A DNA stretch of 64,000 nt from an uncultured Pseudobdellovibrionaceae bacterium (GCA_964400355.1 CAYNTO010000012.1:13290-77289); one strand, 5' to 3'; shown: positions 1,969-23,499, numbered from the stretch's first letter. Numbers and translations: made by a program. The notes: generated by a model from the sequence alone, not told the origin.

Positions 1969-2904
1969 TCAAAAACGGTGACGTAGCAGCTTTTCTACTT
2001 CTGAGAAGTCGCCGGCGAGAGCCTTCACCGATCTGCCGGGAGAGTAAGCAACCAAAGTGGTGCCCTTAAGGTGCACCGAGGTTCCCTTGGGAAATAACAG
2101 GCCCTGACGATCATGTATGAGAATTCCATTATATCCCAAGCGTGAGGGCACAATGATATCTGTGGACACAATCGCGCGCTCCTTAAAGCGTTGTGCAAGA
2201 TCTTTGAGTGGTTTTTCTAAGGGGCTGGAATTCAAAAAGGCCTGCAGTGGGAGCACTGGGTTTTTTCGGCCCGAGTAGATAAGTATTTCTACTTCAGAAT
2301 TTTGCGGTGGCGCGACTCGAGCCATATATCCGCTCTCATCCTCGAGTTCAGGTAGATGTGTCATGTTTCCGATGCGCACGTATCCACCATTCTGCTCCGT
2401 TGAATCCATGGGGTAATTTTTCACCTTAAAATAACCGCAGAACTCTGTGTAAAAGCCTCGATCCGCCATTTCAGGATCCGTAATAACGTTATCGCTCTGG
2501 TCCTTCGTCGTCGCATCTGTGGATCCGGGTTTGTGGGACCAAAAGCGGTTGTCGTCGCGCCGATACCAGTGGAAATCATAGCCAGGTGCCACCACGAGAG
2601 CAATGAGCGTGTCCTCAGATTTGCTTTTTTGGGAAAACGCGTCTGTCGAGGTAATTCCCAGATCTTTCGTCGCAGCTCTCGTCACTTCCTCACAACTCAC
2701 ATCCTTATACATCGAATCGCTCGCTTCACCCGGTTGAGCAAAGGAGTGTGTAAGCCGGTTGGTGGAGTAATTGTAACAGTTGTTGTTCCACAGATTGCTG
2801 GTGTCGTTGTTCCAAAATTCCAGATCCACTTTAGGAACCGCAATCGTAGGCTTCTCCACACCGTGAGATAAAAGCAAATGGGACAAAAAAAACACAAGGA
2901 ACAC
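1969..2904 (-). CDS. secreted hypothetical protein (possible Cys/His hydrolase)
   Basis: 311-aa ORF with a hydrophobic N-terminus (MFLVFFLSHLLLSHG). WNNNCYNYS followed by YDFHWYRRDDNRFWSHKPG gives a Cys...His arrangement reminiscent of papain-fold hydrolases. I cannot assign a family. Confidence 0.5.
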   Translation of the reverse strand: MFLVFFLSHLLLSHGVEKPTIAVPKVDLEFWNNDTSNLWNNNCYNYSTNRLTHSFAQPGEASDSMYKDVSCEEVTRAATKDLGITSTDAFSQKSKSEDTLIALVVAPGYDFHWYRRDDNRFWSHKPGSTDATTKDQSDNVITDPEMADRGFYTEFCGYFKVKNYPMDSTEQNGGYVRIGNMTHLPELEDESGYMARVAPPQNSEVEILIYSGRKNPVLPLQAFLNSSPLEKPLKDLAQRFKERAIVSTDIIVPSRLGYNGILIHDRQGLLFPKGTSVHLKGTTLVAYSPGRSVKALAGDFSEVEKLLRHRF

Positions 2905-3019
2905 TATAACCCCCGCGAAAATATGTACTAGCCTAGTGCAGATTTTTCGGAGATGCCAACAAGTCTCACTTGGGCGCTAGAGTGTCATGAACTGATTCAG
3001 TGCGCGCCGTGGCTATTAT

Positions 3020-3997
3020 TTAAGCATATATTCTGCGAGCGTCAGGATGGGTGCTTTTCCACAAAAAAGAATCGAAAAAATAATGGCAGAATAACGGTGT
3101 GAGCAATAGTGCTGTGGTGAATGCCTGACCGTTGGAGCTCAGATCAAGCCACTCGTCCTCGACCCAATATTCGGCACTCCCAAAAATAAACGCCGTCAAA
3201 ACAACAACCGCAAGAGGGACGAAACCTTTGTAGAGAGTGGGTTCTATCCGTCGCAACGAGAGATCGGTGAGAGCCAAGTAGCTAAAGCCGTGACTGACAA
3301 CCAACGGAAAAAGAATTTGCGCCGCCGTTTCGCCGTTAATAAATGCACAACCGTAAAATAACGCCGCAAAAAAAACCGATAGCGTTCGGTTAAAGTCACC
3401 GTACCGGTAGAGGCGATAGGCCTCGAAGCCCAGCCAAGAGAATGAAACCACTGTAAAAAACGCGATCGCGACGACGTATACGGAGCTGTTAGGATAAAAA
3501 AACAGTTCATCTGTGGCGTAATACGCCGCCAACTTCGGCGTTTCCCGAAAATGAAATGCCACAAAGGGGACTGCGCACAGACTGTACAAAAAAATATCAG
3601 AAACTTTACTCCATTGCTTGTTGAGCTTTTGATACCATCTGGAGATTCCTAAAAGTTGCCGCACATTGTGAAAGACTGTCGCATACACAACAAAAGCTGC
3701 CAAATATTTCCATTGGAAGTGAACCCATAGATAAAAGACGGCAAAAAATACTATGGGAACGAGCCAATAGACAGAAGTTCGTTGGCGTTCAGAGGGGCGA
3801 AAGTATGTGCGCCAGAGTGTAGCGTAAACATGGCCGGAATCGAGGACTCCCGCGGAAACAAATGAAAACACCAGTAACGCCGCCGACTGTTCGCTGGAAG
3901 GAATCCAATGGCTCAACACGATAGCCAACACGCCTGGGGCGTAGAGCATCAAGATATCGATGTAGAGCTTGCTCCAGATCATAGTTGAATTGTACAT
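3020..3997 (-). CDS. polytopic integral membrane protein (~10 TM), unknown function
   Basis: 325-aa ORF made almost entirely of hydrophobic helices. Loop motifs rich in His/Arg include GHVYATLWRTYF, FHNVRQLLG, VVSHGFSY and CHYFFDSFLWK. The ATG at 3997 lies back-to-back with the divergent ORF at 3998. An alternative ATG is at 3982. Confidence 0.6.
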   Translation of the reverse strand: MYNSTMIWSKLYIDILMLYAPGVLAIVLSHWIPSSEQSAALLVFSFVSAGVLDSGHVYATLWRTYFRPSERQRTSVYWLVPIVFFAVFYLWVHFQWKYLAAFVVYATVFHNVRQLLGISRWYQKLNKQWSKVSDIFLYSLCAVPFVAFHFRETPKLAAYYATDELFFYPNSSVYVVAIAFFTVVSFSWLGFEAYRLYRYGDFNRTLSVFFAALFYGCAFINGETAAQILFPLVVSHGFSYLALTDLSLRRIEPTLYKGFVPLAVVVLTAFIFGSAEYWVEDEWLDLSSNGQAFTTALLLTPLFCHYFFDSFLWKSTHPDARRIYA

Positions 3998-7943: not shown

Positions 7944-9244
7944 AGACGCGGTCTCATCTTTTTTAGCCGTTCTGAAAAAATATCCGCGGCGAAAATTCTC
8001 ACTACTGCGGGAATCATGTAGCTGGGCAATTGACTCTCTGAGAAATCTTTAAAGTAAGATCGAAAATTTGTCTCCTCCTCATTCTCATTGAGGACGATAT
8101 CGACACATACTGCGTTTCCAATCAAAGGATGGCGCTGAGAGTAGGCCATGACATCTTTAACAGCTGTGATTCTGGAAATGATATCTTCCAATTCGGTGGG
8201 GAAGAATTTGCGACCTCCTACATTAATAGTTCCGTCCTGGCGACCGATGATACGGAAAAAATCGTGAGGATCTCTGTCGTCCACCACATCTCCCGTGCGG
8301 AACCAACCATCCGCATCGGCGCCGCCCTCGTGATTGAGGTAACCCAACATCATACATGGAGAGCGAACACTTAGCAGCCCACCTTCGATACGAAATGGAT
8401 TGATTTCTCTGTTCAGAGTCAATCTCCAAGGCCGCTCACCGTCTGTAATGGTTTTAAGAATTCCTACCTCCGTCATTCCATAGGTATGCATCAACTCAGC
8501 TCGAGGCAAGCGCTCCTGATAAGCTCGTAAAGTAGATTCGAGCGATGGCTCCGACCCAAAGGCGATTTTGCGGAGCGGCTGCAATTTATGGCTGCATGCT
8601 GCCAGCTCGGGTCTTAATAGGTTCATAAAACTCGGAGTGGTTTGAAAGTAGTCTACCGTTTGCGCGCTGATGACATCTATGATTTCCCTCGGTGAGAGTT
8701 TGTTATCGCAAAGTGCGAGGCGGGCGCGATGTGCATAGGCCTCGAGCAGGGTTTCCAATCCGGCTATGGAATCTAGGGGTGAAAAGGCCAAAGTGGTTTT
8801 ATAATGGGGGCCGATAGTTTTGTACTTTTTGAGGAATTTTTGTAAATCGTGAAGGACAAATTTGTGACGCACGCTCAGGGAGCCCGACGTTTTGACAATG
8901 CAAGGGCTACCGCTGATCGACGACAGATCGGCAATGACATTTGTTCCACGTCCCATATACGTCATCTTCACGTCACCAAATTCGCAGTCCATTCGAGCCG
9001 CCTCGACGACATCGGCCCTATAATGGGGATCATTGTAGCGGATGGCTGAACAGATATGGAAAGGTTGATGCTCTTCCACGAGAGCAATAACCTGTGCGAA
9101 CGTGTCACGAGCGTGTGCCGCGGGAAGAACTTTTAACGTCGTATTTCCGCGCCAAAGTGTCTTGTAGTGATCCACTGATTTTACAAATTCATTGTATGTT
9201 GTTGTGGAACAGTTCGAAATTAAAAACAAATCAGCCGGCATCAC
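7940..9244 (-). CDS. ANL-superfamily adenylate-forming ligase (DltA-like carrier-protein ligase)
   Basis: Adenylation core motifs are present: KTSGSLSVRHK (degenerate A3), YGMTE (A5), GWFRTGDV (A7) and GRQDGTINVGGRKFFPTELE (A8). At 434 aa it is short for the family. The track start is GTG 9244; an ATG lies at 9241. Confidence 0.8.
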   Translation of the reverse strand: MMPADLFLISNCSTTTYNEFVKSVDHYKTLWRGNTTLKVLPAAHARDTFAQVIALVEEHQPFHICSAIRYNDPHYRADVVEAARMDCEFGDVKMTYMGRGTNVIADLSSISGSPCIVKTSGSLSVRHKFVLHDLQKFLKKYKTIGPHYKTTLAFSPLDSIAGLETLLEAYAHRARLALCDNKLSPREIIDVISAQTVDYFQTTPSFMNLLRPELAACSHKLQPLRKIAFGSEPSLESTLRAYQERLPRAELMHTYGMTEVGILKTITDGERPWRLTLNREINPFRIEGGLLSVRSPCMMLGYLNHEGGADADGWFRTGDVVDDRDPHDFFRIIGRQDGTINVGGRKFFPTELEDIISRITAVKDVMAYSQRHPLIGNAVCVDIVLNENEEETNFRSYFKDFSESQLPSYMIPAVVRIFAADIFSERLKKMRPRL

Positions 9245-9542
9245 TGGCGCCCATTTTTTTTTGGATCAATGGAATTAACGAGTCTACCCGTGCAAAGTAA
9301 TTTGTGGATGTATCTATGATCTCGTCCGTTGCAAATTCCACTTTTGTTCCAACTTTATTGCAGAGAACCTCTTCAAGAACAAAAATAAAAGCAACAAGAC
9401 CCATGGAATCCAGAAGTGCTTGGGACGTTCCATAGAGTTGTGTCGACAACTCAGGACGGACGTCTTTGAAATGCGGCGTGTTCTGCGCACACTTTTCAAA
9501 AGTAGGAACGATAATTTCTTGAAAGATCTCCTGATCTGTCAT
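9231..9542 (-). CDS. carrier protein (DltC-like phosphopantetheine-attachment protein)
   Basis: 103 aa. ALLDSMGLVAFIFVLEE has the LDSxG serine context typical of D-alanyl carrier protein DltC, rather than the DSLD context of FAS ACP. Its start forms an ATGA overlap with the upstream crotonase stop. Confidence 0.75.
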   Translation of the reverse strand: MTDQEIFQEIIVPTFEKCAQNTPHFKDVRPELSTQLYGTSQALLDSMGLVAFIFVLEEVLCNKVGTKVEFATDEIIDTSTNYFARVDSLIPLIQKKMGASDAG

Positions 9543-10264
9543 TGCGAATTCCTCAAGAACAGTGCGATTCGCTGGCGTGTCTCATTGTCTTTGGCCAACT
9601 GTGACGATTGGCGCGCACATTTTACAAGAACCTGTTTGGTAATGCCGGAATTTTTAAGCAGCATCGCTTTAGTGACCGACAACGATCGTGCAGTGGCCTT
9701 TTCAAACTGATGTTGGCAATGTTCGATGTAAGCTTGCGTATTTGCCTCTACCGCGGAGAGGAGTCCGATTTCGAGAGCTCGATCGGCAGATATCACGGGA
9801 TGTAGCAGGGCTAGCTCTGCCAAACGCCGCGAACCCATTCGCCATTGGAGAAGAGGAGTGATAATTCCTGGCGAAAGTCCTAGACGAGTCTCGGTGAGCT
9901 GATAGGAGCTCTCAGGAGTGCCTACCGCGACATCGGCAGCGGCCAAGAGTCCGAGCGCCCCGCCTGTATTTTTGCCTTTAGCAGCACTCACAATAGGCAC
10001 AGCACAAGTAAGAAATGTCCAATACATTTCCGCAAGTGGCAAAAGGTTGGCTTCTTTATAAATCCACGCCAAGTCCGCACCCGACGACAAATTTTTTCCA
10101 CGACCTTCGAGCGCGATACAACGCACCTTAGAGCTGTACTTTTTAATCAGTGCCATTAACTGCTTTGCTATTTTCGAATCCATCGCATTTGCTTTTTCGG
10201 CTCGATCGATAACAATGTGCAAACGATTATTGACCACGGAAAAATCTATATGGCTCATGCCCAC
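9539..10264 (-). CDS. enoyl-CoA hydratase/isomerase (crotonase) family protein
   Basis: LEGRGKNLSSGADL and AAKGKNTGGALGLLAAADVAV match the crotonase oxyanion-hole segments. An ATG at 10258 gives an ATGA overlap with the type III PKS stop. Confidence 0.8.
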   Translation of the reverse strand: MGMSHIDFSVVNNRLHIVIDRAEKANAMDSKIAKQLMALIKKYSSKVRCIALEGRGKNLSSGADLAWIYKEANLLPLAEMYWTFLTCAVPIVSAAKGKNTGGALGLLAAADVAVGTPESSYQLTETRLGLSPGIITPLLQWRMGSRRLAELALLHPVISADRALEIGLLSAVEANTQAYIEHCQHQFEKATARSLSVTKAMLLKNSGITKQVLVKCARQSSQLAKDNETRQRIALFLRNSQ

Positions 10265-11310
10265 CTCAAGATAGCCGTCTCGATAGTTAGGCCAGGTCCC
10301 ATTGTAATCATAACGGCATTCTCATGGGCGTTTAAGGCTTGTGAATCTTGGTACAGCTGGTAGGTAGCCAGAAAGCTCGCGCTGGATATGTTTCCGTAGT
10401 GCTTGAGAGTTTCTCTGGTGTACTTGAGCGCCTCGGGTGGTAGCTCTAGCTTTTTTTCAATAGCGTCCAGAATAGCGGCTCCGCCCGTATGGACAATCCA
10501 GAGAGTCAACTGGTTGAGCGTTAAATTCTCGCGATCGAGTAGAGAGTTTATAGGAATATGTATGTGTCGCGCCAATGTTTCGGGAGTTTTTTTATCTATA
10601 AAAAAGCAGTTGCGATTTTGCGCCGAATTGTAATCAAAACGCAACATCGGTAATGACTCGGGAATAAGATACGATTGAAACTGACTGACACGCGGATATT
10701 TTCCAGCATGTTTGCCTGAAGATTCCAATAGGGCCACCGCTATGCCGTCACCAAAAAGCGAATTGACGAGATCCGTGTTCTCGCTACCATCCAAACAGTA
10801 AATAGCAGAGCAGATCTCCGCACACACCAGCAACCCCTTGCGCCCCGGATTGTCGGCGCACCAGTTTTTAACGGCCTTTAAGCCGTTCAACCCAGCATTG
10901 CACCCCATACTGACAACATCCAGCCGCTCGCAATCAGCGCGGAGTCCTAGGGTTTTGTACAGCAGAGCTGACAAGGACGGCACAATAAAACCCGTCGAGG
11001 TGATACAGCACACAAAATCGATGTGTTGCGAGGATACATTGAGTTTATTGAGCAGTCGAGAGGTCGCTTCCCGGGTGAGCTTTAAAGACTCGTTTTTAAA
11101 TCGCTCGATGAGTTGAGAATTAGTCTCGTTACTGTGTTCCAGTGACAGGTGGCGTTTTTCAATATGAGGGTGGTTGAAAAAACGTTCGAAGCTTTTTTGA
11201 TGAGGGCCTTCGATTCTCAGCTTTTGAAAAACCTCACGTTGCGTGAATGTCTGCACCGGAAATGCACTTTCAACCCCAAGAAAATAGACTTCGCGCGACT
11301 TTTCCATCAC
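10255..11310 (-). CDS. type III polyketide synthase (chalcone/stilbene synthase family)
   Basis: The Cys-His-Asn triad sits in type III PKS contexts. VSMGCNAGLNGL corresponds to the GC.AG Cys motif. WIVHTGGAAILD corresponds to HPGGPAILD. HYGNISSASF corresponds to YGNMSSACV. GPGLTIETAIL is also present. The length of 351 aa fits the family. Confidence 0.9.
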   Translation of the reverse strand: MMEKSREVYFLGVESAFPVQTFTQREVFQKLRIEGPHQKSFERFFNHPHIEKRHLSLEHSNETNSQLIERFKNESLKLTREATSRLLNKLNVSSQHIDFVCCITSTGFIVPSLSALLYKTLGLRADCERLDVVSMGCNAGLNGLKAVKNWCADNPGRKGLLVCAEICSAIYCLDGSENTDLVNSLFGDGIAVALLESSGKHAGKYPRVSQFQSYLIPESLPMLRFDYNSAQNRNCFFIDKKTPETLARHIHIPINSLLDRENLTLNQLTLWIVHTGGAAILDAIEKKLELPPEALKYTRETLKHYGNISSASFLATYQLYQDSQALNAHENAVMITMGPGLTIETAILRWA

Positions 11311-11340: not shown

Positions 11341-12405
11341 TCAAACAGTATTGATTGAGGACATCATGTCAAATGGCTCGATTCCCACCTGCCGAAGTAA
11401 GTCGGAGTCCATCTGCTTCACCTTGCGCGAACGCAAGTCCATGTTGTCTCCGCACAGCAATTTGTCGCAGACTATGGGCATTGAAGGAAGTTGGAAATGG
11501 GGATCGCGGTAAATATTGCCTACGGATCCACCAACAAAGCAGGAGCCGCGAAAGATCTCTCCTGCAGGATCAATCTTAATGTGATCCAAGCCCGCCCAGC
11601 AGTGCCACCCCTTAAAACTGTTGCGACGATGAAATACCAAATCGTTGTAATGAAATTCCTCGCTGATGAGAACACCATCGCTGCGGGAGAAGAGTTTTAG
11701 TTTTTTTTGCCGCTCCTCCTTCATGAGTCCGATGATGGCTGCGCGCTCACTCTCTGCGAATTTGTCCTCGTACCCCACTCTTTTTACACCGGGCACTTTG
11801 GGTTCTTTATAATTTGGTCCCTTCACCATCCTCAACTCACAACGCTCGAGCTTTTGATCTTTAAATGTTTCAAACAGATACTGCACCTGCTCCGACTGCC
11901 CAGGCGCCACCATAATACGCACAATTAGAGTTTTTTGATGAGTACCAGCGACACGATTCCACTGGTTTTTCCACTCCTCCAGCTGGAGAATTTTTTCCAC
12001 ATACAGCTGAAGACGCGGCGCCATTGCCTCCAAGTGCAAACTAATCACTACACAATCCAGCAGATTAAAGAGTTCCACCAAATACTCAATGGGTCGAAAC
12101 CCGTTTGTTGTAATACTGATTACGGAAGGGTCGCGCTCGCGCATGTAGGAACACAGTTGTAAAAAATCGGGATGGAGGGTCGGCTCACCACCAGTAAGAC
12201 TCCAGCTAATGTTGCGTCCATGATGGCGCGTCAGTATATCTACGACTCTCTGCATATCCGCCAGAGGCACATGAGGTGAGCGTTGGTCATGAATAATATC
12301 ACTGCAATAGGAACAATCAAAATTGCACCTTTTTCCCACGTACCAATCCACCACCATCCCTGGTTTACGCGAAGGATAAAATAGAGCGACGGGTTGGGCG
12401 TCCAT
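11341..12405 (-). CDS. radical SAM protein with Cys-rich C-terminal (twitch/SPASM-like) extension
   Basis: GKRCNFDCSYCS is the CX3CX2C radical-SAM motif, and TGGEPTL is the SAM-binding GGE motif. The C-terminus reads HCWAGLDHIKIDPAGEIFRGSCFVGG...VCDKLLC. Confidence 0.85.
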   Translation of the reverse strand: MDAQPVALFYPSRKPGMVVDWYVGKRCNFDCSYCSDIIHDQRSPHVPLADMQRVVDILTRHHGRNISWSLTGGEPTLHPDFLQLCSYMRERDPSVISITTNGFRPIEYLVELFNLLDCVVISLHLEAMAPRLQLYVEKILQLEEWKNQWNRVAGTHQKTLIVRIMVAPGQSEQVQYLFETFKDQKLERCELRMVKGPNYKEPKVPGVKRVGYEDKFAESERAAIIGLMKEERQKKLKLFSRSDGVLISEEFHYNDLVFHRRNSFKGWHCWAGLDHIKIDPAGEIFRGSCFVGGSVGNIYRDPHFQLPSMPIVCDKLLCGDNMDLRSRKVKQMDSDLLRQVGIEPFDMMSSINTV

Positions 12406-12491
12406 TACTCTCTACGATAAGGGTGATCGATTTCGGTGGTCAAGGCGTGGCATCCTATTAGACATTGCAAAAATGAAATGTCACGGCTAGC

Positions 12492-13751
12492 GTGGAATCG
12501 ACGATGAGTGCTCAAAACCCAGATACTGACATAGTACCCTCAGCGGCCGCTACCGCTGCTCTCACGGACATAGAAAACCGAGCCACGTCGTCCCCTTCGT
12601 TTTGCGGGTTACCCTGGCGACATCTGTTTGTATCCCCCGACGGCAATGTGAAACCCTGTTGCAGGTATATACGCGGCAAAAATTTTCCCGAAGTCAGTAA
12701 CCCCGCGCAAGCATTCCACAGTACCTACTGGGAAAACCTGCGCCGGGATATGCTCCACAACAAAACAATTGCCGGTTGCGCCAAATGCGACCAGGAAGAG
12801 CGATTAAATACAAAAAGTCTGAGAGAAAAAATAAATACAGATGCCGTCTACGCCATCAACCCTTTAGAAGACAAGCCCGAGGCCCACACTCTCGAGGTGG
12901 CGTTTTCAAACACGTGCAATTTGTCGTGTATTATGTGTGATTCTCGCTTTAGCAGTGCATGGACGATGGTGGAAAAACAACTCTTTGGTAAAACGCTATA
13001 TCCAGAGAAAAAATTTCGCTTTAACGCGCAAGATTTAAACGCCTTCCCGGGCCTCCGTTTACTCAAAGTCACAGGTGGCGAACCGTTTTTAGAACATCAA
13101 ATCCATTTGGCGACTCTGAACTATATCGTCGAATTTCTCAAGCCTGAGGGTTTCCGACTGGATTACAGCACCAATCTCACCGTCCTCCCAAAACCGCAAA
13201 TCATCGAACAGTGGGCGAAGTTTGAACGCGTGGAAGTGACGCTCAGTTTGGATTCCATCTTCGAAAACGAACTCAAATACATCCGTTATCCTTCGGATGC
13301 GGCCACCATCCGTACCCATGTGCGATTTTATTTGGAGTTGATGAACCAACTCCCCAACCTCCACGTCGTAGTACGGCCAACTGTACACGTTCTCAATATA
13401 GCCAGCATGCTCTACACGATGCAGTGGTGGTACTCAGAAAAACAAAAATACGCCATTGACGACCGCTGCAAAGACTCGGTTTCTTTCTTAGCTTATCCGG
13501 AGTTTCTGCAGCCCACTGCGCTCTCCCCGGATGAACAACTTCGAGTGCGTCACCTTGTAGAAAATTTTACGATCACAAAAAGTGACCATAAGAATTTGCT
13601 GCACCACCAAACACGGCTTCTCAATTACCTGCATGAAAAGCCATTTGATCCGCGCCATGCTCAGAAACTCAAAGAATTTTTAAAAGCAATGGATTCGCAC
13701 AGAGGAACTCACTTTCGCGCACAGTTCGAATATTTAAATGATGCCCGTTAG
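12492..13751 (+). CDS. radical SAM protein with N-terminal twitch/SPASM-type Cys-rich domain (permuted order)
   Basis: The N-terminus FCGLPWRHLFVSPDGNVKPCCRY...GCAKCDQEE is a SPASM/twitch-type auxiliary-cluster signature. It is followed by FSNTCNLSCIMCDS (CX3CX2C) and VTGGEPFL. The track start is GTG 12492; an ATG lies at 12504. Confidence 0.8.
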   Translation: MESTMSAQNPDTDIVPSAAATAALTDIENRATSSPSFCGLPWRHLFVSPDGNVKPCCRYIRGKNFPEVSNPAQAFHSTYWENLRRDMLHNKTIAGCAKCDQEERLNTKSLREKINTDAVYAINPLEDKPEAHTLEVAFSNTCNLSCIMCDSRFSSAWTMVEKQLFGKTLYPEKKFRFNAQDLNAFPGLRLLKVTGGEPFLEHQIHLATLNYIVEFLKPEGFRLDYSTNLTVLPKPQIIEQWAKFERVEVTLSLDSIFENELKYIRYPSDAATIRTHVRFYLELMNQLPNLHVVVRPTVHVLNIASMLYTMQWWYSEKQKYAIDDRCKDSVSFLAYPEFLQPTALSPDEQLRVRHLVENFTITKSDHKNLLHHQTRLLNYLHEKPFDPRHAQKLKEFLKAMDSHRGTHFRAQFEYLNDAR

Positions 13752-15481
13752 TAGGGCGTGTGACGGAACTCGGTGATGCTCTCTTTACTAGTGTCGGCAA
13801 TCAATCGACCCACGATCGTTGGTCCCAGGCGTATACGACGATCGTCGCCGATATAACGATTAATTTTAAGCATATAGTCTGCCAAGGAGCCATTGTCCAA
13901 AAGGTAACCGTACATATTCTGCATAAACAATTTTGTTTCTGCTTTGCTCAATCCACTTCTTAGAAGTGCATACAGCAAATAATCATTCTGAAAAAACAAT
14001 GTTTTATCGAAACTGTAAATGCTCCACAACATTTCAAGACGTCGTTCCGATTCAGGAACGCGCTCTTCCCAACACATACCACCGATCTCATCGTAGGCAG
14101 CGATGCGGCCGTTGTCGGCCACCGCGCGGATGCGTAGGTTGTATTTTTCTGGGTCCGATGCATAATAGGTGTTAGCAAGCAGGCGAAAAATATTCACTTC
14201 GATACAGTCGTAGAGATCAGTGCGGTCTTTAATAAAATTATGAGTGAGCATATAATCTTCGACAGTTTCATGGGGAAACGCCAGGATGAGATACAATCCA
14301 CTCCAAATTCCAAATTTCTGCGCGGTCTGCAGTGTGCGGTAGACATCCTCGACTGTGGCCTGCTTATTGTTTTGCAAAAGCAGTTTGGGGCTCAAGGTTT
14401 CGGCTCCAAACCACAGCTTGACACATCCGGCTTTAGCTAAAGTTCCAAGAATTTTTTCGGAAGTATGAATCATATTCGCCGAATCGGAAAAAAAGATGCC
14501 GATGTTGGCCTCTATTATTTTTTCCGCCAACTGCACTGGAAAAATAGGCCCCAAATTGACATTGTCATTGTACCAGCGGTAATTCTCGAATCCTTTTTTG
14601 CGAAGCACAGTGAGATGATGAACGACATCATCTGCAGAGTGTGTGCGCACGGCGGTGTCTTTACCAGATTGGCAAAACGTGCATTTGTACGGGCAACCCA
14701 GAGTGTGACGATAGGGAATTAATGTCAGGGGATCTTGATCGCGCAAACGCGGCTCTTGGCGAATGAGATCTTCTGGAAACAGATCCTTGAACTCTACAAA
14801 CAAATCGGCTTTGTTGATGACGTCATATTTGGGCGTAAAATTGCTCTGGCGGAAAAGACTATTATCGACAATAAACCGATCGTTCCCGTGGAGCGGGCCT
14901 TCGCCATTGAAATAATTTTTGAGTGCTACGGGAAAGACGCCATGACTGTTGCGGGTAAAGTAGTAATCGATCGCTCGACCCGCCAATCGATCTGCAAGCT
15001 TCCGCGCATAATTGATACCCACATCTTTGATCAGCTCTTTACCGCCAGCCAAGATGATGGCGGTCGTGCGCTTACGAATTTCGGCCGCTAGCAAATTGGC
15101 GAAATGTAAAGTGCCGCGACTCATAAATGTTTCAAATCCGACCTTATCCATGGAAATGGCAACCGCATCATAGCGCTTTACGTCTCCGACAAGCTCCATG
15201 CAGTGATCCAACCAGCGTTGAACCCACATCGAAGTTTTTGCGCCATGGACTTCGGCAATAACTTGCTCGTCGTTGGTGAGTACACTTTTGTCTCCCTCTG
15301 ACAGATACTCCTCGCCACGTATCTTTGTAAGAGCCGCATTGAGGTCATAAAAATCCACTTCAAACCCGTGATGCTCAAGAGCACCAGCAACCATGGCCGA
15401 CCCCAAGCTCAGTTCCTGATACAGCTTTGGCTGAAACAGAGTGATGTTTGGACTCAAAAGAAACAGGATTTTCTTAGCCAT
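13748..15481 (-). CDS. B12-binding-domain radical SAM protein (class B)
   Basis: The N-terminal Rossmann-like segment KILFLLSPN...LGSAMVAGALEHHGFEVDFYDLN is typical of the cobalamin-binding domain. It is followed by TLGCPYKCTFCQS (CX3CX2C). 577 aa. Confidence 0.8.
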   Translation of the reverse strand: MAKKILFLLSPNITLFQPKLYQELSLGSAMVAGALEHHGFEVDFYDLNAALTKIRGEEYLSEGDKSVLTNDEQVIAEVHGAKTSMWVQRWLDHCMELVGDVKRYDAVAISMDKVGFETFMSRGTLHFANLLAAEIRKRTTAIILAGGKELIKDVGINYARKLADRLAGRAIDYYFTRNSHGVFPVALKNYFNGEGPLHGNDRFIVDNSLFRQSNFTPKYDVINKADLFVEFKDLFPEDLIRQEPRLRDQDPLTLIPYRHTLGCPYKCTFCQSGKDTAVRTHSADDVVHHLTVLRKKGFENYRWYNDNVNLGPIFPVQLAEKIIEANIGIFFSDSANMIHTSEKILGTLAKAGCVKLWFGAETLSPKLLLQNNKQATVEDVYRTLQTAQKFGIWSGLYLILAFPHETVEDYMLTHNFIKDRTDLYDCIEVNIFRLLANTYYASDPEKYNLRIRAVADNGRIAAYDEIGGMCWEERVPESERRLEMLWSIYSFDKTLFFQNDYLLYALLRSGLSKAETKLFMQNMYGYLLDNGSLADYMLKINRYIGDDRRIRLGPTIVGRLIADTSKESITEFRHTPY

Positions 15482-15538: not shown

Positions 15539-16624
15539 ATGCGTCGACATCCCTACCCTTTTTACAGCGTTTACAGAATCAGTAGCCCTAAAGGGTGCGG
15601 ACCTCATATACTCGCCCTTCACACGGAATGGGGTTCAGTGTTTAAATATCTCTCAGTTTCTGGATTCATTTTGAGTAGCATTGTGTTTTCAACCGCAGTG
15701 GCCGATGTGCCCACAATGACTCTTGACCAAATTCTCGCTGAAGCAATAAACAAGAAAAAAACGTACCTACCAGAGTTTCTCCGCGAGTCTGTAGCGCGCT
15801 GCGAACTCCATTTGACTCCAAGCAACCTGGGTCGTTCCTGCTTGGAAGAGGTTCGGGAACAAACATTTAGTATTCTCACCTGCGAGAGCACTCTATCCCG
15901 ATGGCAAGAAATGGGAGCACTCGACGACCATGACATGGATGCGATGCTCGAATCTTACCCCTCTACAGATGTGCCTCCAGACATTAAAACAGTCTTTGAA
16001 GAACTTGTAAATATCGCTGCTCGCCAGTGGCGAAATACCCCAGCGGTTCAAAAATTCCCTCTCCCCCAGTGGAGCATAGAGGCCTATGCGGCGGACTATT
16101 ACAATGCTCATGCAGGTGCCAACGGAAGCATACTCATCTCCAGCCAATTCTGGCAAACCGCTTCGCCATTTTCAGTCGATGAGATTCGTGCAATTTTAGC
16201 TCATGAAGTGGCCCATGTATTATTGAATCATTCTCTCGAACTGGGATGCCTCTACTTTGAGTGGTCCAACCAACCGAGCACCGCTTCTCTTCTGGACGCT
16301 CGGGAAATTATTCACGGTGATTTTTCGGTAACTATGGGCGCAGGCAAAGCGTGGTCCGAGCTCTCTCAAAAAAATGAATTCCGCGCTGATGCGATGGCCG
16401 TGGAGCTGCTTTACAACTTGCACTACGATGGGCTGGCGATGGCCCGCGCGATTCAAAAAATTTATGATCATTCTCCGAAAGGTGGTTTTAGCTCTGGCAG
16501 TCACCCCGACCTCCTCGACCGCGTCGAAGAGGCTCGCCGAAAAGCCACGACCTACGGACCGCCGCGAACGCTGAAAAATTCGCTCTCTAAAATAGCCTCG
16601 GCAGGCCTCACCAGAAAATCCTAA
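15539..16624 (+). CDS. M48-like zinc metallopeptidase, secreted or membrane-anchored
   Basis: ILAHEVAHVLLNH is an HExxH motif, and a downstream NEFRADAMAVELL is present. The hydrophobic segment FILSSIVFSTAVA follows a doubtful N-terminal extension. GTG 15638 is an alternative start. Confidence 0.6.
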   Translation: MRRHPYPFYSVYRISSPKGCGPHILALHTEWGSVFKYLSVSGFILSSIVFSTAVADVPTMTLDQILAEAINKKKTYLPEFLRESVARCELHLTPSNLGRSCLEEVREQTFSILTCESTLSRWQEMGALDDHDMDAMLESYPSTDVPPDIKTVFEELVNIAARQWRNTPAVQKFPLPQWSIEAYAADYYNAHAGANGSILISSQFWQTASPFSVDEIRAILAHEVAHVLLNHSLELGCLYFEWSNQPSTASLLDAREIIHGDFSVTMGAGKAWSELSQKNEFRADAMAVELLYNLHYDGLAMARAIQKIYDHSPKGGFSSGSHPDLLDRVEEARRKATTYGPPRTLKNSLSKIASAGLTRKS

Positions 16625-16778: not shown

Positions 16779-16854
<76 letters not shown>

Positions 16855-18053: not shown

Positions 18054-19376
18054 TCACGGTTTATCAGGTAGTTCCCGCGGTTCATTTTTAACCCACTCGA
18101 GATATTCCTTCATACGTTTTTCGAAACCGCGCTCACCCGGTGTGTAGAATTTTTCGTTCTTCGCTTCTTCTGGTAAAAAAGTTTGCGCCCGATACCCACG
18201 CTCACCATCGTGCGAGTATTTGTAGCCTTTTCCATAACCGAGTTTTTTCATAAGTGCGGTGCTGGAAGATCGCAGTGCTAGAGGTACCTGCAAGTTACCG
18301 GTCGCCTTTACATACTCAATGGCCTGATTGATCGCCTTATAAGATGAATTCGATTTAGGTGCGCTGGCGAGATAAACCGTAACTTGCGCGAGCGGAATGC
18401 GCGCCTCGGGCATTCCCATGGTGCGCACGGCTTGGTCGCAGGAGACAGCGAGATTTAACCCTTGCGGGTCTCCATTGCCGATGTCTTCAGAGGCTAAAAT
18501 CATAAGCCGCCGGGAGATAAATTTTGGATCCTCTCCACCCTCGAGCATGCGTGCAAGATAATAGATGGCCGCATCAGGGTCACTCCCACGCACGCTCTTA
18601 ATAAACGCGGAGATGCAATCATAGTGAGTGTCTTTATCCTTGTCGTAGGATAGCGCTTTTGTGATATTGAGCTCTTTAAACTGCGCCGATGTGAGTGGCA
18701 AGTCGGTAGGACTTTCTTGAACATGGACTATAACGTCTTCGATCAGATTGAGAAGTGACCGGCCGTCACCGGAGGTCCAGCGAATGATCTCCTCGCGCAA
18801 CTCCTCGGTGAAAAGCGGTTGCGCCAATTCGTAATGGCGCTGCGCACGCTCCAGCAGATCATTGAGTGCGCGATCATCGAGAGGATCAAAAACGATGAGA
18901 CGACAGCGGCTCATCAAAGCGCTATTGAGCTCGTACGATGGATTCTCGGTAGTGGCGCCAATGAGATAAATATCCCCGGCCTCAACAAAAGGAAGCAACA
19001 CATCTTGCTGACTGCGATTGAGGCGATGGATCTCGTCCACAAAAACGAGCGTGGGTTGTCCTTGAGTGATGCGGGTGTATTTGCCCTGCTCACCGATTTC
19101 GCGCAAGCGCTTGGCTCCAAGGTCCGTGGCGTTCTCCTCAATGTAATGAACCTTGGGGAGTTCCTGCACCAAAGCTTTAACAAATGAGGTTTTCCCGCAG
19201 CCTGGAGGTCCCCATAAAATCAAACTGGCCAATTGACCCTTCTTCATGGACTGAATGAGCGGAGAATAGGTTTTAAGGAATTTCTTTTGCCCTAAAAAAT
19301 CCGCAAGCGTGGTGGGCCGTAAACGTGCAGCTAACGGGGCGGTAGAAGATAGGGCTGACTGTGAGAACAATTCCAT
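18054..19376 (-). CDS. rarA: replication-associated recombination protein A (AAA+ ATPase, MgsA/RarA)
   Basis: LILWGPPGCGKTS is the Walker A motif and LVFVDEIHRLN is Walker B. The C-terminal block has DAAIYYLARMLEGGEDPKFISRRL and the YKYSHD motif typical of RarA. Confidence 0.9.
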   Translation of the reverse strand: MELFSQSALSSTAPLAARLRPTTLADFLGQKKFLKTYSPLIQSMKKGQLASLILWGPPGCGKTSFVKALVQELPKVHYIEENATDLGAKRLREIGEQGKYTRITQGQPTLVFVDEIHRLNRSQQDVLLPFVEAGDIYLIGATTENPSYELNSALMSRCRLIVFDPLDDRALNDLLERAQRHYELAQPLFTEELREEIIRWTSGDGRSLLNLIEDVIVHVQESPTDLPLTSAQFKELNITKALSYDKDKDTHYDCISAFIKSVRGSDPDAAIYYLARMLEGGEDPKFISRRLMILASEDIGNGDPQGLNLAVSCDQAVRTMGMPEARIPLAQVTVYLASAPKSNSSYKAINQAIEYVKATGNLQVPLALRSSSTALMKKLGYGKGYKYSHDGERGYRAQTFLPEEAKNEKFYTPGERGFEKRMKEYLEWVKNEPRELPDKP

Positions 19377-19433: not shown

Positions 19434-20069
19434 TCAGTCGGTATCGATAATGAGTCGGATCGGAATAGACTGGCGAATGATTTCCTGATTGGCAGAATCA
19501 TCCTGAGCAATAGCTGTGACGCGAATAAAACCGGCGACGGTGGCTCGCGTGTCCTCCGGTAAAGCGAGTCCGCCAAAAGCGAGAGAACACGATATATAAC
19601 CAGTATCTACAGTTCCATCATTGTTAAGATCAAACTGCTTAAGATCGCTGCGATAGGTGTTATCGGGGGCTGCAGTTGCACCCACTCCGCCCTTGCGCGG
19701 AATTTTTACGTCGTTTTTAGCGCCCACTCCAAACATTTGGCCAATTTCATCGGGGTCAACGATGTCTATTTTCGTCGCGAGGATGGTGTTCTCCACGTCC
19801 AACTGAATTTTTACTATAAAAAGATCTCGGCCCGTTTCGCGCCAAGACAGCGAGAACGACGAAAATCCCAAACTGGCCTCGCTCACACTCTCTGCCTCCA
19901 CATCTCCACTTGCGACATCTACACAGCTACGTCTTCCAATGGGTACTGCCGCCACTTGGCTGGGGGTTGCTGAGAGCACGAAAATATTGTCGTACTCACT
20001 GCCCCCGCTGCAGGAGGCGATGGCAAAATACATAACTAAAAGACCGAGTGTGGAGTAACGTTTCATCAT
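19434..20069 (-). CDS. lipoprotein of unknown function, co-transcribed with pilQ
   Basis: The lipobox is FAIASC. A 4-nt overlap with the pilQ stop implies one transcript. FDLNNDGTVDTG is a Ca-binding-loop-like segment. Confidence 0.55.
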   Translation of the reverse strand: MMKRYSTLGLLVMYFAIASCSGGSEYDNIFVLSATPSQVAAVPIGRRSCVDVASGDVEAESVSEASLGFSSFSLSWRETGRDLFIVKIQLDVENTILATKIDIVDPDEIGQMFGVGAKNDVKIPRKGGVGATAAPDNTYRSDLKQFDLNNDGTVDTGYISCSLAFGGLALPEDTRATVAGFIRVTAIAQDDSANQEIIRQSIPIRLIIDTD

Positions 20070-22273
20070 AATGATTCTACCTCATTTTCGATCTCGTCCA
20101 TAGACTCATCGCTGGGCGCGGATTCGCTGGATTGCGGTGAAACGAGCATCGATTCAGATTGAGATTTTACAACGTCTCCGGAAGACGTTATCTCTGTGGT
20201 TTTGAGCATCGATTCCGGATTGAGGATGCGTGGGGTGAGGAAGATCACCAGCTCTGTTTTGGTGATTTCTTTGAGTTTGGTTTTAAACAAATATCCTAAA
20301 ATTGGAATATCTTTGAGCAGCGGGATACCGCCCTCCGCATGGGTTTCGGTTTGATCGAAAATTCCACCAAGAACAAGGGACTGGCCGTCCTTCACGATAA
20401 CTTTAGTTGTCGCTTTCCGCTTATTGATACCACGGCTTGTCCCACCTACAGTGGGGCCGGGAATATCGCGATTCACTTCGATATCCATAATCAGGTCCGA
20501 GTTGAACGACACTTGAGGTGTTACCGCCAAACTCAGTTTGGCATCTTGGAATTGCACCTGCTGAGTTGCGCCCACGCCCTGCACGGCGGTCACGATAATG
20601 TTTGGCACTTGTTGAGTGGATTCGATCATCGCTTTTTCTTTATTGAGCGTTACGATCTTCGGTGAAGATAGTACTTTTACCTTTTGTTCTCGCTCATAAA
20701 TAGACAAGATAGAAGTGATATCGCCAATGCCATCTAGAGTTCCATAACTCAAGCTGGTGGTAAGGCCCCCTGCAAATGTCGATGGGTTGCGATCGGCTTT
20801 AATGTTGTTCCCTAAGGTGAGGGTCTGATCGCCCACCTCTACTGATCCGCCATTTTGTCCCCACTGAACGCCAAATTCGCGTGCGAATTCTTCGCTCGCC
20901 TCGATAATTTTTCCCTCAATCAAGATCTGCACCGGAGATACGTCGAGTGATTTGATCAGTTTTTCCGCGCGCTCCATGGGTCCATTGTAATCATTGATAA
21001 TTATAGAACTTGAGCGCTTGTCCACGATCACTGTACCGGCCGCACCGGTACCATTGGTTGTCTGCGTGAGGAAGGGTCCAACTTGCTTGGCCAAATCATC
21101 GAGATTCGCGTAATTGATCGGGATGACTTTTACAGCGCGTGCTTGCGCCGCTCGTTGCGCGCCCTCTTGGGCGTTGATACGTGCCGCTTCTTGATTGTAT
21201 TCGTCGGTGATTGTTTTGCTTTCAGCAATGCGAAGAATTTCTCCGCGGCGCTCGTACGCCAATCCGTTCGTCTTAAGAATCAACGACAAAGCTTCTTCCC
21301 AAGGAGTGTCCTTGAGTTTAACGCTTGTTGTTTTATTCACATTGTCATCGACGATGATATTTACGCCCACGTCATCAGCGATAAAATAAATAAGATCTTT
21401 AATATTGATGTCCTGCATCTCCAACGAAATCTTTTTGCCGGTCATGCGCGAACGCTGGCCAATAATCGGACCTGCTCCACTGTTCATAACCATGAGCTGG
21501 CTACCCTGAAGCTGAACGGCAGGCTTCAACTTGTCTTTATATTGGATAACAAAACGTGCGGTGGTGGATCCCGATTCTTGGTACGCGTTTACGGTGGCCA
21601 CTGCTTGCTCAAAGTCTTTGGCAATGTACGGAAGTTTAAATCGATCGGGAAGATCGATGTCGGCTATCTCAATGACTGTTTGATTGAATTCCGGTTCGTC
21701 CCGAACCTCATACTCAAAAGGCTGAGCAGCGCTGATAACAACGCTACCGCCAGACTGCTGTGATTTGTACTCCAAGTTTGTGATCGTATTGCCGGAACTG
21801 CTCGATACGCTGGATGCCGCAGCAGAAGTTTCCTCTGACGGACTTGCTTCTGTATCTGCCATTTCTAAATCCAGATCCTCAATCGCACCATTGTCCACAG
21901 AGGCATCGGTTTGCGGCTCGTTGCCAAGCTCCACAGTTCCGGCTGTCATGCTTTCACTGGACAATTCATTTTCTAGTTGGCCTTCGTTGAAATCCTCGAT
22001 ATCCCCGAAAGAGTCATCCGACAAATCGTCCGCACTGGCTTGATCAGTGGACTCTTCGGAAGTTGTTTCATCGGCAGAAGCTGACTCCAGATCGAGATCC
22101 TCGAAGTCGGACTCGCCGCCCTCCGCAGTTTCCACCTCGATGGGATCCGCCTCACCTTCCATTTCCGATGCAGCAACCGATTCATCTTCCGACGAATCAA
22201 ACATCGAGCACGATGTGAGCGAAACAAATAAAAATACTAAACACAGATGAAAGAACATCCTTGTCATTATCAT
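20066..22273 (-). CDS. pilQ: type IV pilus secretin PilQ
   Basis: The C-terminal secretin core reads VLSSPKIVTLNKEKA...VKDGQSLVLGGIF...GIPLLKDIPILGYLFK...ELVIFLTPRI. It lies at the end of the pilMNOP gene order. The N-terminus has a lipobox (SLTSC) and a roughly 150-aa acidic low-complexity region. Confidence 0.9.
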   Translation of the reverse strand: MIMTRMFFHLCLVFLFVSLTSCSMFDSSEDESVAASEMEGEADPIEVETAEGGESDFEDLDLESASADETTSEESTDQASADDLSDDSFGDIEDFNEGQLENELSSESMTAGTVELGNEPQTDASVDNGAIEDLDLEMADTEASPSEETSAAASSVSSSSGNTITNLEYKSQQSGGSVVISAAQPFEYEVRDEPEFNQTVIEIADIDLPDRFKLPYIAKDFEQAVATVNAYQESGSTTARFVIQYKDKLKPAVQLQGSQLMVMNSGAGPIIGQRSRMTGKKISLEMQDINIKDLIYFIADDVGVNIIVDDNVNKTTSVKLKDTPWEEALSLILKTNGLAYERRGEILRIAESKTITDEYNQEAARINAQEGAQRAAQARAVKVIPINYANLDDLAKQVGPFLTQTTNGTGAAGTVIVDKRSSSIIINDYNGPMERAEKLIKSLDVSPVQILIEGKIIEASEEFAREFGVQWGQNGGSVEVGDQTLTLGNNIKADRNPSTFAGGLTTSLSYGTLDGIGDITSILSIYEREQKVKVLSSPKIVTLNKEKAMIESTQQVPNIIVTAVQGVGATQQVQFQDAKLSLAVTPQVSFNSDLIMDIEVNRDIPGPTVGGTSRGINKRKATTKVIVKDGQSLVLGGIFDQTETHAEGGIPLLKDIPILGYLFKTKLKEITKTELVIFLTPRILNPESMLKTTEITSSGDVVKSQSESMLVSPQSSESAPSDESMDEIENEVESL

Positions 22274-22297
22274 CTCCTAACGGACTCTGCCTGACTT

Positions 22298-22897
22298 TTA
22301 TTTTCGTATAGATAATGTAATTGTAGAAGTAGACTTTTGCTGCCCCTCACCCAAAGTCTGTACAATTATGATCTTTCCTTCGCGAATGGCCTGAATGATA
22401 CCAAAGTTCTCACCAAGGTAATCTCCCACGGTAACTTTAACGATGCGGCTCTTCTTTTGTTTTAGTCCCGGAGAATCATCGGGGATTTGAATAAATGCTT
22501 TTGGCTTTACTCGGTCCATAATGATCCCTTTGATCACCACGTCCTGGAGCTTCACTTCCTGAAGAGGGAGAAACGGACCAAAGTAAGATCCAGGAAGTAG
22601 TGGCGCCTCTTTTGTCTCTGGCAATAGGAATGGATCACGTTTGCCTTTGCGCACGTAATTGAAGGGTTCGGTAAGACGCTTGACGAGGGAACCTTGGTTG
22701 GCCAATTGCTCATCGACGGCCATCGCACTATCATCCACCGGCGGAGCTTGATCGGCTTGCGCCTCATCGCCAGTTTCACCCGCATCTCCGGCGTCGCCCA
22801 TCTCGGGAGCAGATTCCTCCACCACCGGCTCGGGAAAGTCACCCTCGCTCGGTGGCTCCTGCGCAAAAATAAGAGAGAGGCAAAATAACCAGATCAT
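22298..22897 (-). CDS. pilP: type IV pilus assembly protein PilP
   Basis: The call rests on its position between pilO and pilQ, an acidic/Pro-rich linker, and a C-terminal beta domain (RDPFLLP...LQDVVIKGII...VTVGDYLGENFGIIQAIREGKIII) that matches the PilP pattern. Confidence 0.75.
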   Translation of the reverse strand: MIWLFCLSLIFAQEPPSEGDFPEPVVEESAPEMGDAGDAGETGDEAQADQAPPVDDSAMAVDEQLANQGSLVKRLTEPFNYVRKGKRDPFLLPETKEAPLLPGSYFGPFLPLQEVKLQDVVIKGIIMDRVKPKAFIQIPDDSPGLKQKKSRIVKVTVGDYLGENFGIIQAIREGKIIIVQTLGEGQQKSTSTITLSIRK

Positions 22898-23496: not shown

Positions 23497-23499
23497 TGC

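Follow-up and report, generated by a model that had tools for sequence, protein, structure and literature searches.

We analysed a 64,000-nucleotide stretch of DNA from an uncultured Pseudobdellovibrionaceae bacterium (GCA_964400355.1 CAYNTO010000012.1:13290-77289; the whole stretch is called the window below, and coordinates are counted from its first letter) and found that a type III polyketide synthase (PKS) gene in it belongs to a cassette of seven genes that is conserved across Bdellovibrionota. The core set consists of the PKS, a crotonase-fold enzyme, a small carrier protein, an adenylating ligase, an MBOAT (membrane-bound O-acyltransferase), a membrane protein with an SGNH-type domain and a monooxygenase. 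We propose, with a probability of roughly 40%, that these genes make up two modules, one for the synthesis of a PKS-derived acid and one for carrier-dependent acylation of the cell envelope. The original prediction for this region, made from the sequence of the window by itself, had singled out the PKS, the crotonase and the carrier; it missed the MBOAT, the SGNH protein and the monooxygenase, though these define the system.

Results

Conservation of a seven-gene cassette in Bdellovibrionota

Gene neighbourhoods of the PKS relatives were taken from a genome collection and from exact-protein look-ups. The full set of seven genes lay within ~10 kb in 11 of 12 distinct lineages (the window, L084, L001, L003-L005, L007, L009, L086, L088 and L089), and the order of the genes was shuffled between them. 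The hosts were Bacteriovorax stolpii, Bdellovibrio sp., Bacteriovoracaceae and related metagenome-assembled genomes (MAGs), which belong to two classes, Bacteriovoracia and Bdellovibrionia. Four of the 11 were metagenome loci with flanks that came from an independent scan started from the ligase instead of the PKS; each of these four had all seven genes (4/4).

The best family model for the PKS was DpgA, the 3,5-dihydroxyphenylacetyl-coenzyme A (CoA) synthase of glycopeptide antibiotic clusters, which forms its product from four malonyl-CoA and releases it as a CoA thioester. Of 74 DpgA-type loci outside the Bdellovibrionota clade, not one (0/74) had a carrier, MBOAT, SGNH protein or monooxygenase. 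Weak AMP-binding ligase matches were seen in 4 of the 74, at 17-34 bits, compared with 254-300 bits for the ligases inside the clade. The families were also of similar size, with ~58 PKS proteins scoring above 290 bits and 62 members of the carrier family, and at least 11 entries of the carrier and PKS families agreed in the length of their longest contig.

The boundaries of the cassette were clearest in B. stolpii (L001 7708-18686, CP030035.1), where exactly the seven genes stand between pgk and tpiA in a gap-pgk-tpiA-secG row that is otherwise conserved, the insertion marking where the cassette begins and ends. Within the cassettes, the order carrier-ligase-MBOAT was fixed wherever an MBOAT was present, usually on the strand opposite the PKS, and the carrier gene of 9 of the 11 other lineages stood apart from the PKS, in an opposite-strand operon of carrier, ligase and MBOAT. 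The crotonase adjoined the PKS in every relative, in either order. Adjacency of crotonase and carrier was confined to the window and its closest relative (L084; 74% PKS identity). The stoichiometric complex of PKS, crotonase and carrier that had been suggested from the arrangement in the window is thus not backed by conservation, because in the relatives the carrier groups with the ligase and the MBOAT.

The one lineage with an incomplete set was a Pseudobdellovibrio MAG (L008), which had kept the PKS, crotonase, monooxygenase, ligase and carrier and was without the MBOAT and SGNH genes. A gene for an Acyl_transf_3 (AT3) membrane acyltransferase lies upstream of its PKS, at a distance of 1.8 kb, and its carrier gene shares a 4-nt overlap with a gene for an alpha/beta hydrolase (the two features lie at 2051-3304 and 9486-10382 of this locus). 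AT3 is the other known family of transmembrane acyl transfer, and this single case may represent a non-orthologous replacement of the transmembrane acyl-transfer step.

Beside the cassette of another lineage (L003 15935-20750) we observed two FA_hydroxylase genes, a DUF6999 gene and a gene for a 606-aa protein with ACP_syn_III_C and haem-oxygenase-like matches; these are possible extra tailoring genes.

Table 1. Genes of the cassette in the window and the gene next to the PKS. Coordinates are those of the whole window.
Feature	Coordinates	Strand	Basis and remarks
Type III PKS, sister clade of DpgA	10255..11310	-	Pfam Chal_sti_synt N/C, NCBIfam DpgA, neighbor-joining tree
Crotonase-fold enzyme, single-Glu type, 239 aa	9539..10258	-	Pfam ECH_1 77.7 bits (cutoff 27)
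Carrier protein, small unannotated family, 103 aa	9231..9542	-	Fold and motif; predicted phosphopantetheine site Ser46
Short ANL-superfamily adenylating ligase, 433-434 aa	7940..9244	-	Pfam AMP-binding and AMP-binding_C; presumed carrier loader
DltB-like MBOAT, 442 aa	6615..7943	-	Pfam MBOAT 30.2 bits (cutoff 27); catalytic His295
Membrane protein with putative SGNH-type C-terminal domain, 554 aa	4966..6630	+	Ser390, Gly396, Asn425, Asp521, His524
Divergent luciferase-like (flavin-dependent) monooxygenase, 330 aa	3998..4990	+	Pfam Bac_luciferase 48.8 bits
Radical SAM protein, 354 aa	11341..12405	-	Pfam Radical_SAM 58 bits, CNFDCSYC motif

A type III PKS related to DpgA

The PKS open reading frame (ORF) encodes 351 aa from a GTG at 11310, or 350 aa from an ATG at 11307. 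Both chalcone synthase domains of Pfam were recognized in it (Chal_sti_synt_C, 74.1 bits; Chal_sti_synt_N, 53.9 bits; cutoff 27 each), and the NCBIfam FabH models reached at most 79 bits against cutoffs of at least 249. Together, these scores ruled out an identity as FabH/KAS III. The motifs GCNAG, HTGG and GNISS were found in the 351-aa ORF, and in a MAFFT alignment C136, H273 and N306 (350-aa numbering) corresponded to C164, H303 and N336 of chalcone synthase (CHS). The same motifs aligned with the Cys, His and Asn of Pks11 and THNS, and the gatekeepers F185 and F235 fell on F215 and F265 of CHS. The claim of a type III PKS with an intact Cys/His/Asn triad thus held: the triad aligns with that of CHS, and the protein does not cluster with FabH.

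The NCBIfam DpgA model (NF042429) matched the PKS over its full length at 310.4 bits (E 1e-92), under the equivalog cutoff of 425; a genuine Amycolatopsis DpgA, from a dpgA-dpgB...dpgD locus, scored 651.5 bits on the same model. The best matches in the PDB were Pks11 (132 bits), THNS (124 bits), CylI (105 bits) and chalcone synthases (~100 bits). We built a neighbor-joining tree of 84 related PKSs and four outgroups (CHS, THNS, Pks11 and CylI) reconstructed from the PDB alignments. All DpgA-like sequences, those of the window clade included, were monophyletic with respect to the outgroups in 96 of 100 bootstraps, and the window PKS fell with nine other Bdellovibrionota sequences into a separate clade (91/100) outside the one that holds the actinomycete DpgAs. 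The sister of the Bdellovibrionota clade was a sequence from a gammaproteobacterial MAG.

Residue comparisons agreed with this placement. Like DpgA, the PKS has GCN at the active site and the Phe gatekeepers. In both proteins CHS position 256 is taken by a bulky residue, Tyr in the window PKS and Trp in its relatives and in DpgA; the bulky residue and the GCN motif argue for a small starter. The two differ in that their identity is 36-41% and at CHS positions 197 (Ile in the window PKS, Ala in DpgA), 254 (Leu, Met) and 307 (Ala, Lys). These comparisons indicate that the protein is a genuine type III PKS, DpgA-like and not an orthologue of DpgA. The hosts differ as well: Gram-negative predators here, actinomycetes for DpgA.

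A crotonase of the single-Glu type

As had been claimed, the gene next to the PKS encodes a crotonase (Table 1). Its GADL and GGxxG oxyanion-hole segments were conserved in the alignment; of the two catalytic positions, the first is Gly103 and the second Glu123. We take this pattern to be characteristic of the methylglutaconyl-CoA hydratases of bacteria and of PksH/CurE dehydratases. The best NCBIfam and PDB matches were of the same kind (PRK07468, PRK05674, PRK07112, 4kpk, the isohexenylglutaconyl-CoA hydratase 4zu2 and PksH, 3hp0), and 4kpk, the top PDB match, likewise has Gly at the first catalytic Glu (GGALGL) and a conserved second Glu. The leading NCBIfam models, namely PRK07468 (92 bits), gamma-carboxygeranoyl-CoA hydratase (91 bits) and PRK07112, scored within 87-92 bits, and the window crotonase is far below the cutoffs of the single-Glu hydratase families (92 versus 350 bits).

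The crotonase is not the counterpart of either crotonase of the Dpg clusters. It scored 44 bits on the NCBIfam DpgD model (cutoff 400), and DpgB was not among its top 25 models. By BLASTP it gave 37 bits with a genuine DpgB and 40 bits with DpgD, compared with 96 bits for the crotonase beside the sister-clade PKS. The first catalytic position is Glu in DpgB and DpgD and Gly in the window crotonase and all of its clade relatives, and the second Glu (E123), which DpgB lacks, is kept. The BLASTP scores and the Gly at the first Glu position led us to reject an identity as DpgB or DpgD and place the enzyme in another branch of the fold. Of the relationship to DpgA, DpgB and DpgD that had been raised for this region, then, the part concerning the PKS stood (310 bits, joint clade in 96/100 bootstraps), as did the gene arrangement, a crotonase-fold gene adjoining the PKS; orthology of the crotonases did not.

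Crotonase genes also occur beside DpgA-type PKSs elsewhere. The gammaproteobacterial sister-clade PKS (L013 9935-13300; 398 bits on the DpgA model) is followed by a crotonase of the single-Glu type and then by two family-less ORFs, with no carrier, ligase or MBOAT at this locus. In four loci from Myxococcota/'Deltaproteobacteria' (L010-L012 and L014) a crotonase lies just downstream of the DpgA-type PKS; the one in L010 resembles DpgB (120 bits, just under the cutoff of 140) and has Gln at the first catalytic position. The pairing of PKS and crotonase seems to have been built from different crotonase branches in different phyla. Two further DpgA-type PKSs, from MAGs labelled Klebsiella pneumoniae and Bifidobacterium breve (L046 and L052), cluster with those of freshwater 'proteobacterium' and Myxococcota MAGs, and those two species labels are probably mistaken.

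A carrier protein of a new sequence family

The 103-aa ORF between the crotonase and the ligase had no match in Pfam or NCBIfam even at E values up to 10, with eight family members searched, and none in the PDB, whether it was searched as a single sequence or as a profile of eight sequences. A profile search of a large protein collection gave 62 relatives, none with a Pfam domain. Across 50 homologues, D45, S46, L49, F54 and E57 were invariant. An AlphaFold2 (AF2) model built on an alignment of database homologues reached a predicted local distance difference test (pLDDT) score of 86, with helices at 3-21, 46-64, 72-76 and 86-101 and Ser46 at the N-terminus of helix II. With Foldseek, the top matches of this model were acyl and peptidyl carrier proteins (ACPs and PCPs), among them the Thermus thermophilus ACP, RPA2022, PltL, complex I ACPs and the 4h2s carrier; the first eight had probabilities of 0.82-1.00 and E values of 0.02-0.25, and weaker carrier matches followed.

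Since the sequence searches gave nothing, the identification draws on the fold and the conserved motif. By the model and the alignment, the ORF is a carrier protein of a new sequence family, and phosphopantetheinylation at Ser46 is predicted. The protein had been described as a DltC-like carrier. The four-helix carrier fold and the invariant Asp-Ser bear out the second half of that description. DltC, which is present in the PDB in the 6bug complex, was not matched by the sequence or by the profile and was absent from the Foldseek matches, and the comparison with it is justified by genomic context only.

Genes for activation and transmembrane transfer

The ligase has the conserved motifs TSGS..K, HTYGM(S/T)E, WFxTGD, GRxxDxINxxGxKFxPxExE and KKxR, and its A9 motif, PxYM(H/I/S/C)P, is like that of non-ribosomal peptide synthetases (NRPSs). 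Its profile against the PDB scored 84 bits with the 2,3-dihydroxybenzoate-AMP ligase (DhbE-type), 77 bits with 4-chlorobenzoate-CoA ligase and 66 bits with DltA.

The MBOAT scored 76.6 bits on the NCBIfam DltB model (cutoff 375). Its PDB matches were DltB only (6bug and 8jem), and His295 of its WHG motif was aligned with them. The protein ends in the hexapeptide FLYFLM, in which Tyr439 is predicted to act as a fused acyl shuttle. A C-terminal xxYFxx with an invariant Tyr was present in 14 of 14 MBOAT homologues; the canonical first and last Phe were not always kept.

The SGNH gene is convergent with the MBOAT gene. Hydropathy, from which alone the topology was drawn, places hydrophobic segments at 17-35, 238-256 and 269-287 of the protein, and a beta-rich domain of ~200 aa is predicted to be periplasmic. 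The window protein had no family match in Pfam or NCBIfam, and a homologue search with the 554-aa sequence returned the query itself only. In the family alignment G388, S390, G396, N425, D521 and H524 were invariant, and across the GxS and DxxH blocks the family profile matched two GDSL/SGNH structures, 1yzf at E 0.0015 and 6hfz at E 0.004. One family member matched Lipase_GDSL_2 at 9e-5. A single-sequence AF2 model of the protein (pLDDT 38) was unusable and was kept out of the fold search.

The monooxygenase gene lies upstream of the SGNH gene, and its product is weakly SsuD/SfnG-like in NCBIfam. The monooxygenase was found in every cassette, at 214-255 bits and at 483 bits in the closest relative.

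Gene junctions and surroundings of the cassette in the window

The two start-stop overlaps that had been claimed were both read directly from the sequence. On the minus strand, the PKS stop TGA (10257..10255) and the crotonase ATG (10258..10256) share a 4-nt ATGA overlap, GCATGAGC, and the crotonase stop TGA (9541..9539) overlaps the carrier ATG (9542..9540) in the same way, CAATGACA. The range of 9539-11310 that had been given for the three genes contains only the PKS and the crotonase; the carrier is at 9231-9542 (Table 1). Beyond that range, the carrier stop and the ligase ATG (9241) overlap by 11 nt, and the ligase stop and the MBOAT ATG (7943) form another ATGA.

Across the whole window, 7 of 38 same-strand pairs of neighbouring ORFs offered an in-frame start that overlaps the stop of the upstream ORF by 4 nt, with several in a pilus operon. 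The ATGA overlaps therefore mark an operon but are not unusual. They speak for operon packing and possibly for translational coupling, and alone they cannot support a stoichiometric complex. A scan for promoters and terminators was at chance level (18 versus 15.8 expected, and 13 versus 12.7 expected), and a promoter-like site (9/12) at 12443..12414, upstream of the radical SAM gene, carries no weight. Rfam, run over the whole window, gave one tRNA only and no regulatory RNA.

The absence of a thioesterase, a phosphopantetheinyl transferase and a Rossmann methyltransferase, also claimed originally, agreed with our scan insofar as no Pfam or NCBIfam domain of these kinds was found in the ORFs scanned between 1969 and 24114; the cassette does, however, encode a putative acyl hydrolase/transferase domain of SGNH type, for which a periplasmic location is predicted.

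Three radical SAM genes stand directly upstream of the PKS (11341-15481). They encode a 354-aa MoaA/viperin-like protein (minus strand; its gene ends 30 nt upstream of the PKS start), a 419-aa protein with an N-terminal twitch (plus strand; NF033640, 251 bits) and a 577-aa B12-binding protein (minus strand). The closest relative shares the trio and has in addition a SPASM radical SAM gene, a gene of the fatty-acid-hydroxylase family and two unknown ORFs. We rejected the radical SAM genes as core members of the cassette, as only the window and its closest relative (L084/L085) have them; they may form a cluster of their own or supply tailoring enzymes specific to this lineage. Beside the monooxygenase gene are two family-less ORFs (1969-3997), one of 325 aa with five hydrophobic segments and one of 311 aa, which are conserved only in L084 (530 and 416 bits).

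Further upstream of the PKS are genes for an M48 metallopeptidase (15539-16624) and an MgsA-type AAA+ ATPase (18054-19376), the tRNA gene that was the sole Rfam match (16782-16854, minus strand), and a minus-strand type IV pilus secretin operon (19434-25151) with pilN, pilO, pilP and a 735-aa secretin, in which several start-stop overlaps are ATGA or GTGA. The window sequence itself occurs only in four metagenome DNA runs, all from one study.

Discussion

From what each of the seven genes encodes, from their catalytic motifs and from their being kept together in the relatives we infer a pathway in which the PKS product, its use as the ligase substrate, the direction of transfer and the acceptor would be as follows. 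In the first module, the DpgA-like PKS and the single-Glu crotonase, probably helped by the monooxygenase, would convert malonyl-CoA into a small cyclic or aromatic acid, for example one resembling 3,5-dihydroxyphenylacetate. The second module would be an envelope-acylation pathway that mixes features of Dlt and Pat. Here the ligase would activate the acid and load it onto Ser46 of the carrier, the MBOAT (His295) would pass the acyl group to its own C-terminal Tyr439, and the SGNH domain (Ser390), predicted to be periplasmic, would take it over and transfer it to an extracytoplasmic acceptor. The ligase profile, with 84 and 77 bits for aryl-acid ligases versus 66 bits for DltA, weakly suggests an aryl acid as the substrate. 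The Tyr hexapeptide of the MBOAT matches the acyl-shuttle mechanism of PatA and DltX (PMC12148441).

The second module can be compared with two kinds of known system. Dlt, which D-alanylates teichoic acids, consists of the DltA ligase, the DltC carrier, the DltB MBOAT, DltX and the SGNH protein DltD, and the cassette resembles it in having an adenylating ligase, a small carrier, a DltB-like MBOAT with a catalytic His, a Tyr shuttle motif and a putative SGNH-type partner. PatA/PatB, AlgI/AlgJ/AlgX and WssH/WssI are MBOAT-SGNH systems for the O-acetylation of peptidoglycan, alginate and cellulose; they, like the cassette, have MBOATs in Gram-negatives. In MBOAT-SGNH pairs, envelope polymers are acylated by way of an intermediate in which the acyl group sits on the Tyr of a C-terminal FXYXXF motif; this motif lies on the microprotein DltX in carrier-dependent Dlt and is fused to the MBOAT in the carrier-less, acetyl-CoA-dependent PatA-type systems (PMC12148441). 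The latter also share with the cassette the placing of the C-terminal hexapeptide Tyr motif on extra C-terminal helices and a separate periplasmic SGNH transferase, putative in the cassette (PMC12148441).

The cassette departs from both. [quoted passage not shown] The carrier has no sequence similarity to DltC; the ligase, shorter by ~60-70 aa, resembles DltA no more closely than it does aryl-acid ligases; and the SGNH protein carries three membrane segments and an additional domain of ~200 aa. The cassette is also linked to a PKS, and its host is Gram-negative and without teichoic acids. Whereas the PatA-type systems are reported to use acetyl-CoA and to have neither carrier nor ligase (PMC12148441), here a dedicated carrier and ligase always precede the MBOAT gene. 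The cassette is a combination of two designs, the dedicated ligase and carrier of Dlt and the fused Tyr motif of PatA.

Several points weigh against the two-module pathway. It is read here from genes alone, and the product, the acceptor and the loading of the carrier are deduced from them. As DpgA releases a CoA thioester, the MBOAT could take the PKS product without a carrier, which would leave the ligase and the carrier unexplained. PatA-type MBOATs with a fused Tyr motif have been reported to act directly on acyl-CoA (PMC12148441), which points the same way. The similarities to aryl-acid ligases are weak (45-84 bits), and an amino acid could be the substrate because the A9 motif of the ligase is NRPS/DltA-like. 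The putative SGNH assignment draws on motif conservation and a profile match at E ~1e-3. Finally, the product need not be dihydroxyphenylacetate, since the crotonase is of a different type from DpgB and DpgD.

We also considered, in a reading near to the original proposal, that the carrier might serve the PKS. The ligase would load a small acid onto the carrier, the PKS would use the acyl-carrier as its starter, the crotonase would act on carrier-bound intermediates, and the MBOAT and SGNH protein would esterify or export the finished product or have some other role. Some type III PKSs accept carrier-bound starters, and CylI, presumably one of these, was among the PDB relatives that we found. 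The PKS, crotonase, carrier and ligase genes form one tightly overlapping operon in the window and its closest relative, and in L008 the five remaining genes stand together without the MBOAT and the SGNH protein. However, in 9 of the other 11 lineages the carrier and ligase genes share their transcription unit with the MBOAT gene, on the strand opposite the PKS, and the fixed carrier-ligase-MBOAT grouping has the same three components as the dlt operon. The product of a type III PKS moreover leaves the carrier, so that nothing would be left for a carrier-dependent MBOAT, and the PKS pocket is small and like that of DpgA, which uses malonyl-CoA only. On balance we regard a carrier-bound starter as unlikely.

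Somewhat less probable still is a division of the cassette into two branches, in which the ligase, carrier, MBOAT and SGNH protein would transfer an acyl group of an ordinary kind, for instance an amino acid in the manner of Dlt, and the PKS product would be either the acceptor or a separate molecule, an envelope or signalling compound made simultaneously by the PKS, crotonase and monooxygenase. The PxYMxP form of the A9 motif, a score of 52 bits on the amino-acid adenylation model TIGR01733 and the fact that the only structural relatives of the MBOAT are DltBs all fit such an arrangement, and phenolic polyketides would offer hydroxyls for O-acylation. Yet the position where an Asp would be expected to bind the alpha-amino group (A4 region) varies in the ligase family, being Asp, Glu or Gly, and DltA scores below the aryl-acid ligases on the ligase profile. 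The cassette ligase and carrier family were never found without the PKS, and the known acceptors of MBOAT-SGNH systems are extracytoplasmic polymers, not small phenols (PMC12148441).

Two further explanations appear very improbable. A canonical DpgABCD-type pathway to 3,5-dihydroxyphenylglycine for a non-ribosomal peptide would agree with the best family model of the PKS and with a crotonase following it as in dpgA-dpgB, but the PKS falls well short of the score of genuine DpgA (651 bits) and of the equivalog cutoff, the crotonase is neither DpgB nor DpgD, and neither the neighbourhood in the window nor any of the 12 cassettes contained a DpgC, an HpgT-type transaminase or an NRPS. Ordinary operon packing of functionally unrelated genes, to which the frequency of ATGA overlaps in the window would lend itself, is already contradicted by the co-occurrence data, as the seven genes stay together through repeated rearrangement, in differing neighbourhoods and in two classes, and the loci outside the clade have none of the four defining partners and only four weak ligase matches.

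Every part of the cassette belongs to a known kind, and we did not find the combination described in the literature that we searched. Full-text searches returned no type III PKS linked to an MBOAT, DltB or SGNH protein and no description of the seven-gene cassette, including in Bdellovibrio; one genome report, on B. bacteriovorus LR3, gives no more than an entry for a T3PKS region. Known products of type III PKSs are free metabolites, membrane lipids and antibiotic building blocks, and to our knowledge carrier-dependent transmembrane acyl transfer by an MBOAT has been worked out only for the D-alanylation of Gram-positive teichoic acids.

We tentatively suggest, with slightly less confidence than we have in the two modules themselves, that predatory Bdellovibrionota use a Dlt/PatA hybrid pathway to attach a small aromatic acyl group, made by a type III PKS, to a component of the periplasm or outer membrane. 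If true, this would be, as far as we could find, the first type III PKS to feed MBOAT-SGNH transmembrane acylation, and the second carrier-dependent MBOAT pathway after Dlt. The cassette would be a natural system in which to test how an MBOAT selects between acyl-CoA and acyl-carrier as donor, a question that is open to experiment because the cultured B. stolpii has the cassette, and the finding would be of clear interest to those who study bacterial envelopes, polyketides and predatory bacteria. Its conservation in Bdellovibrio, Bacteriovorax and their relatives would point to a new chemical modification of the predator envelope, and, because predation takes place in the prey periplasm, the envelope of the prey might be modified too.

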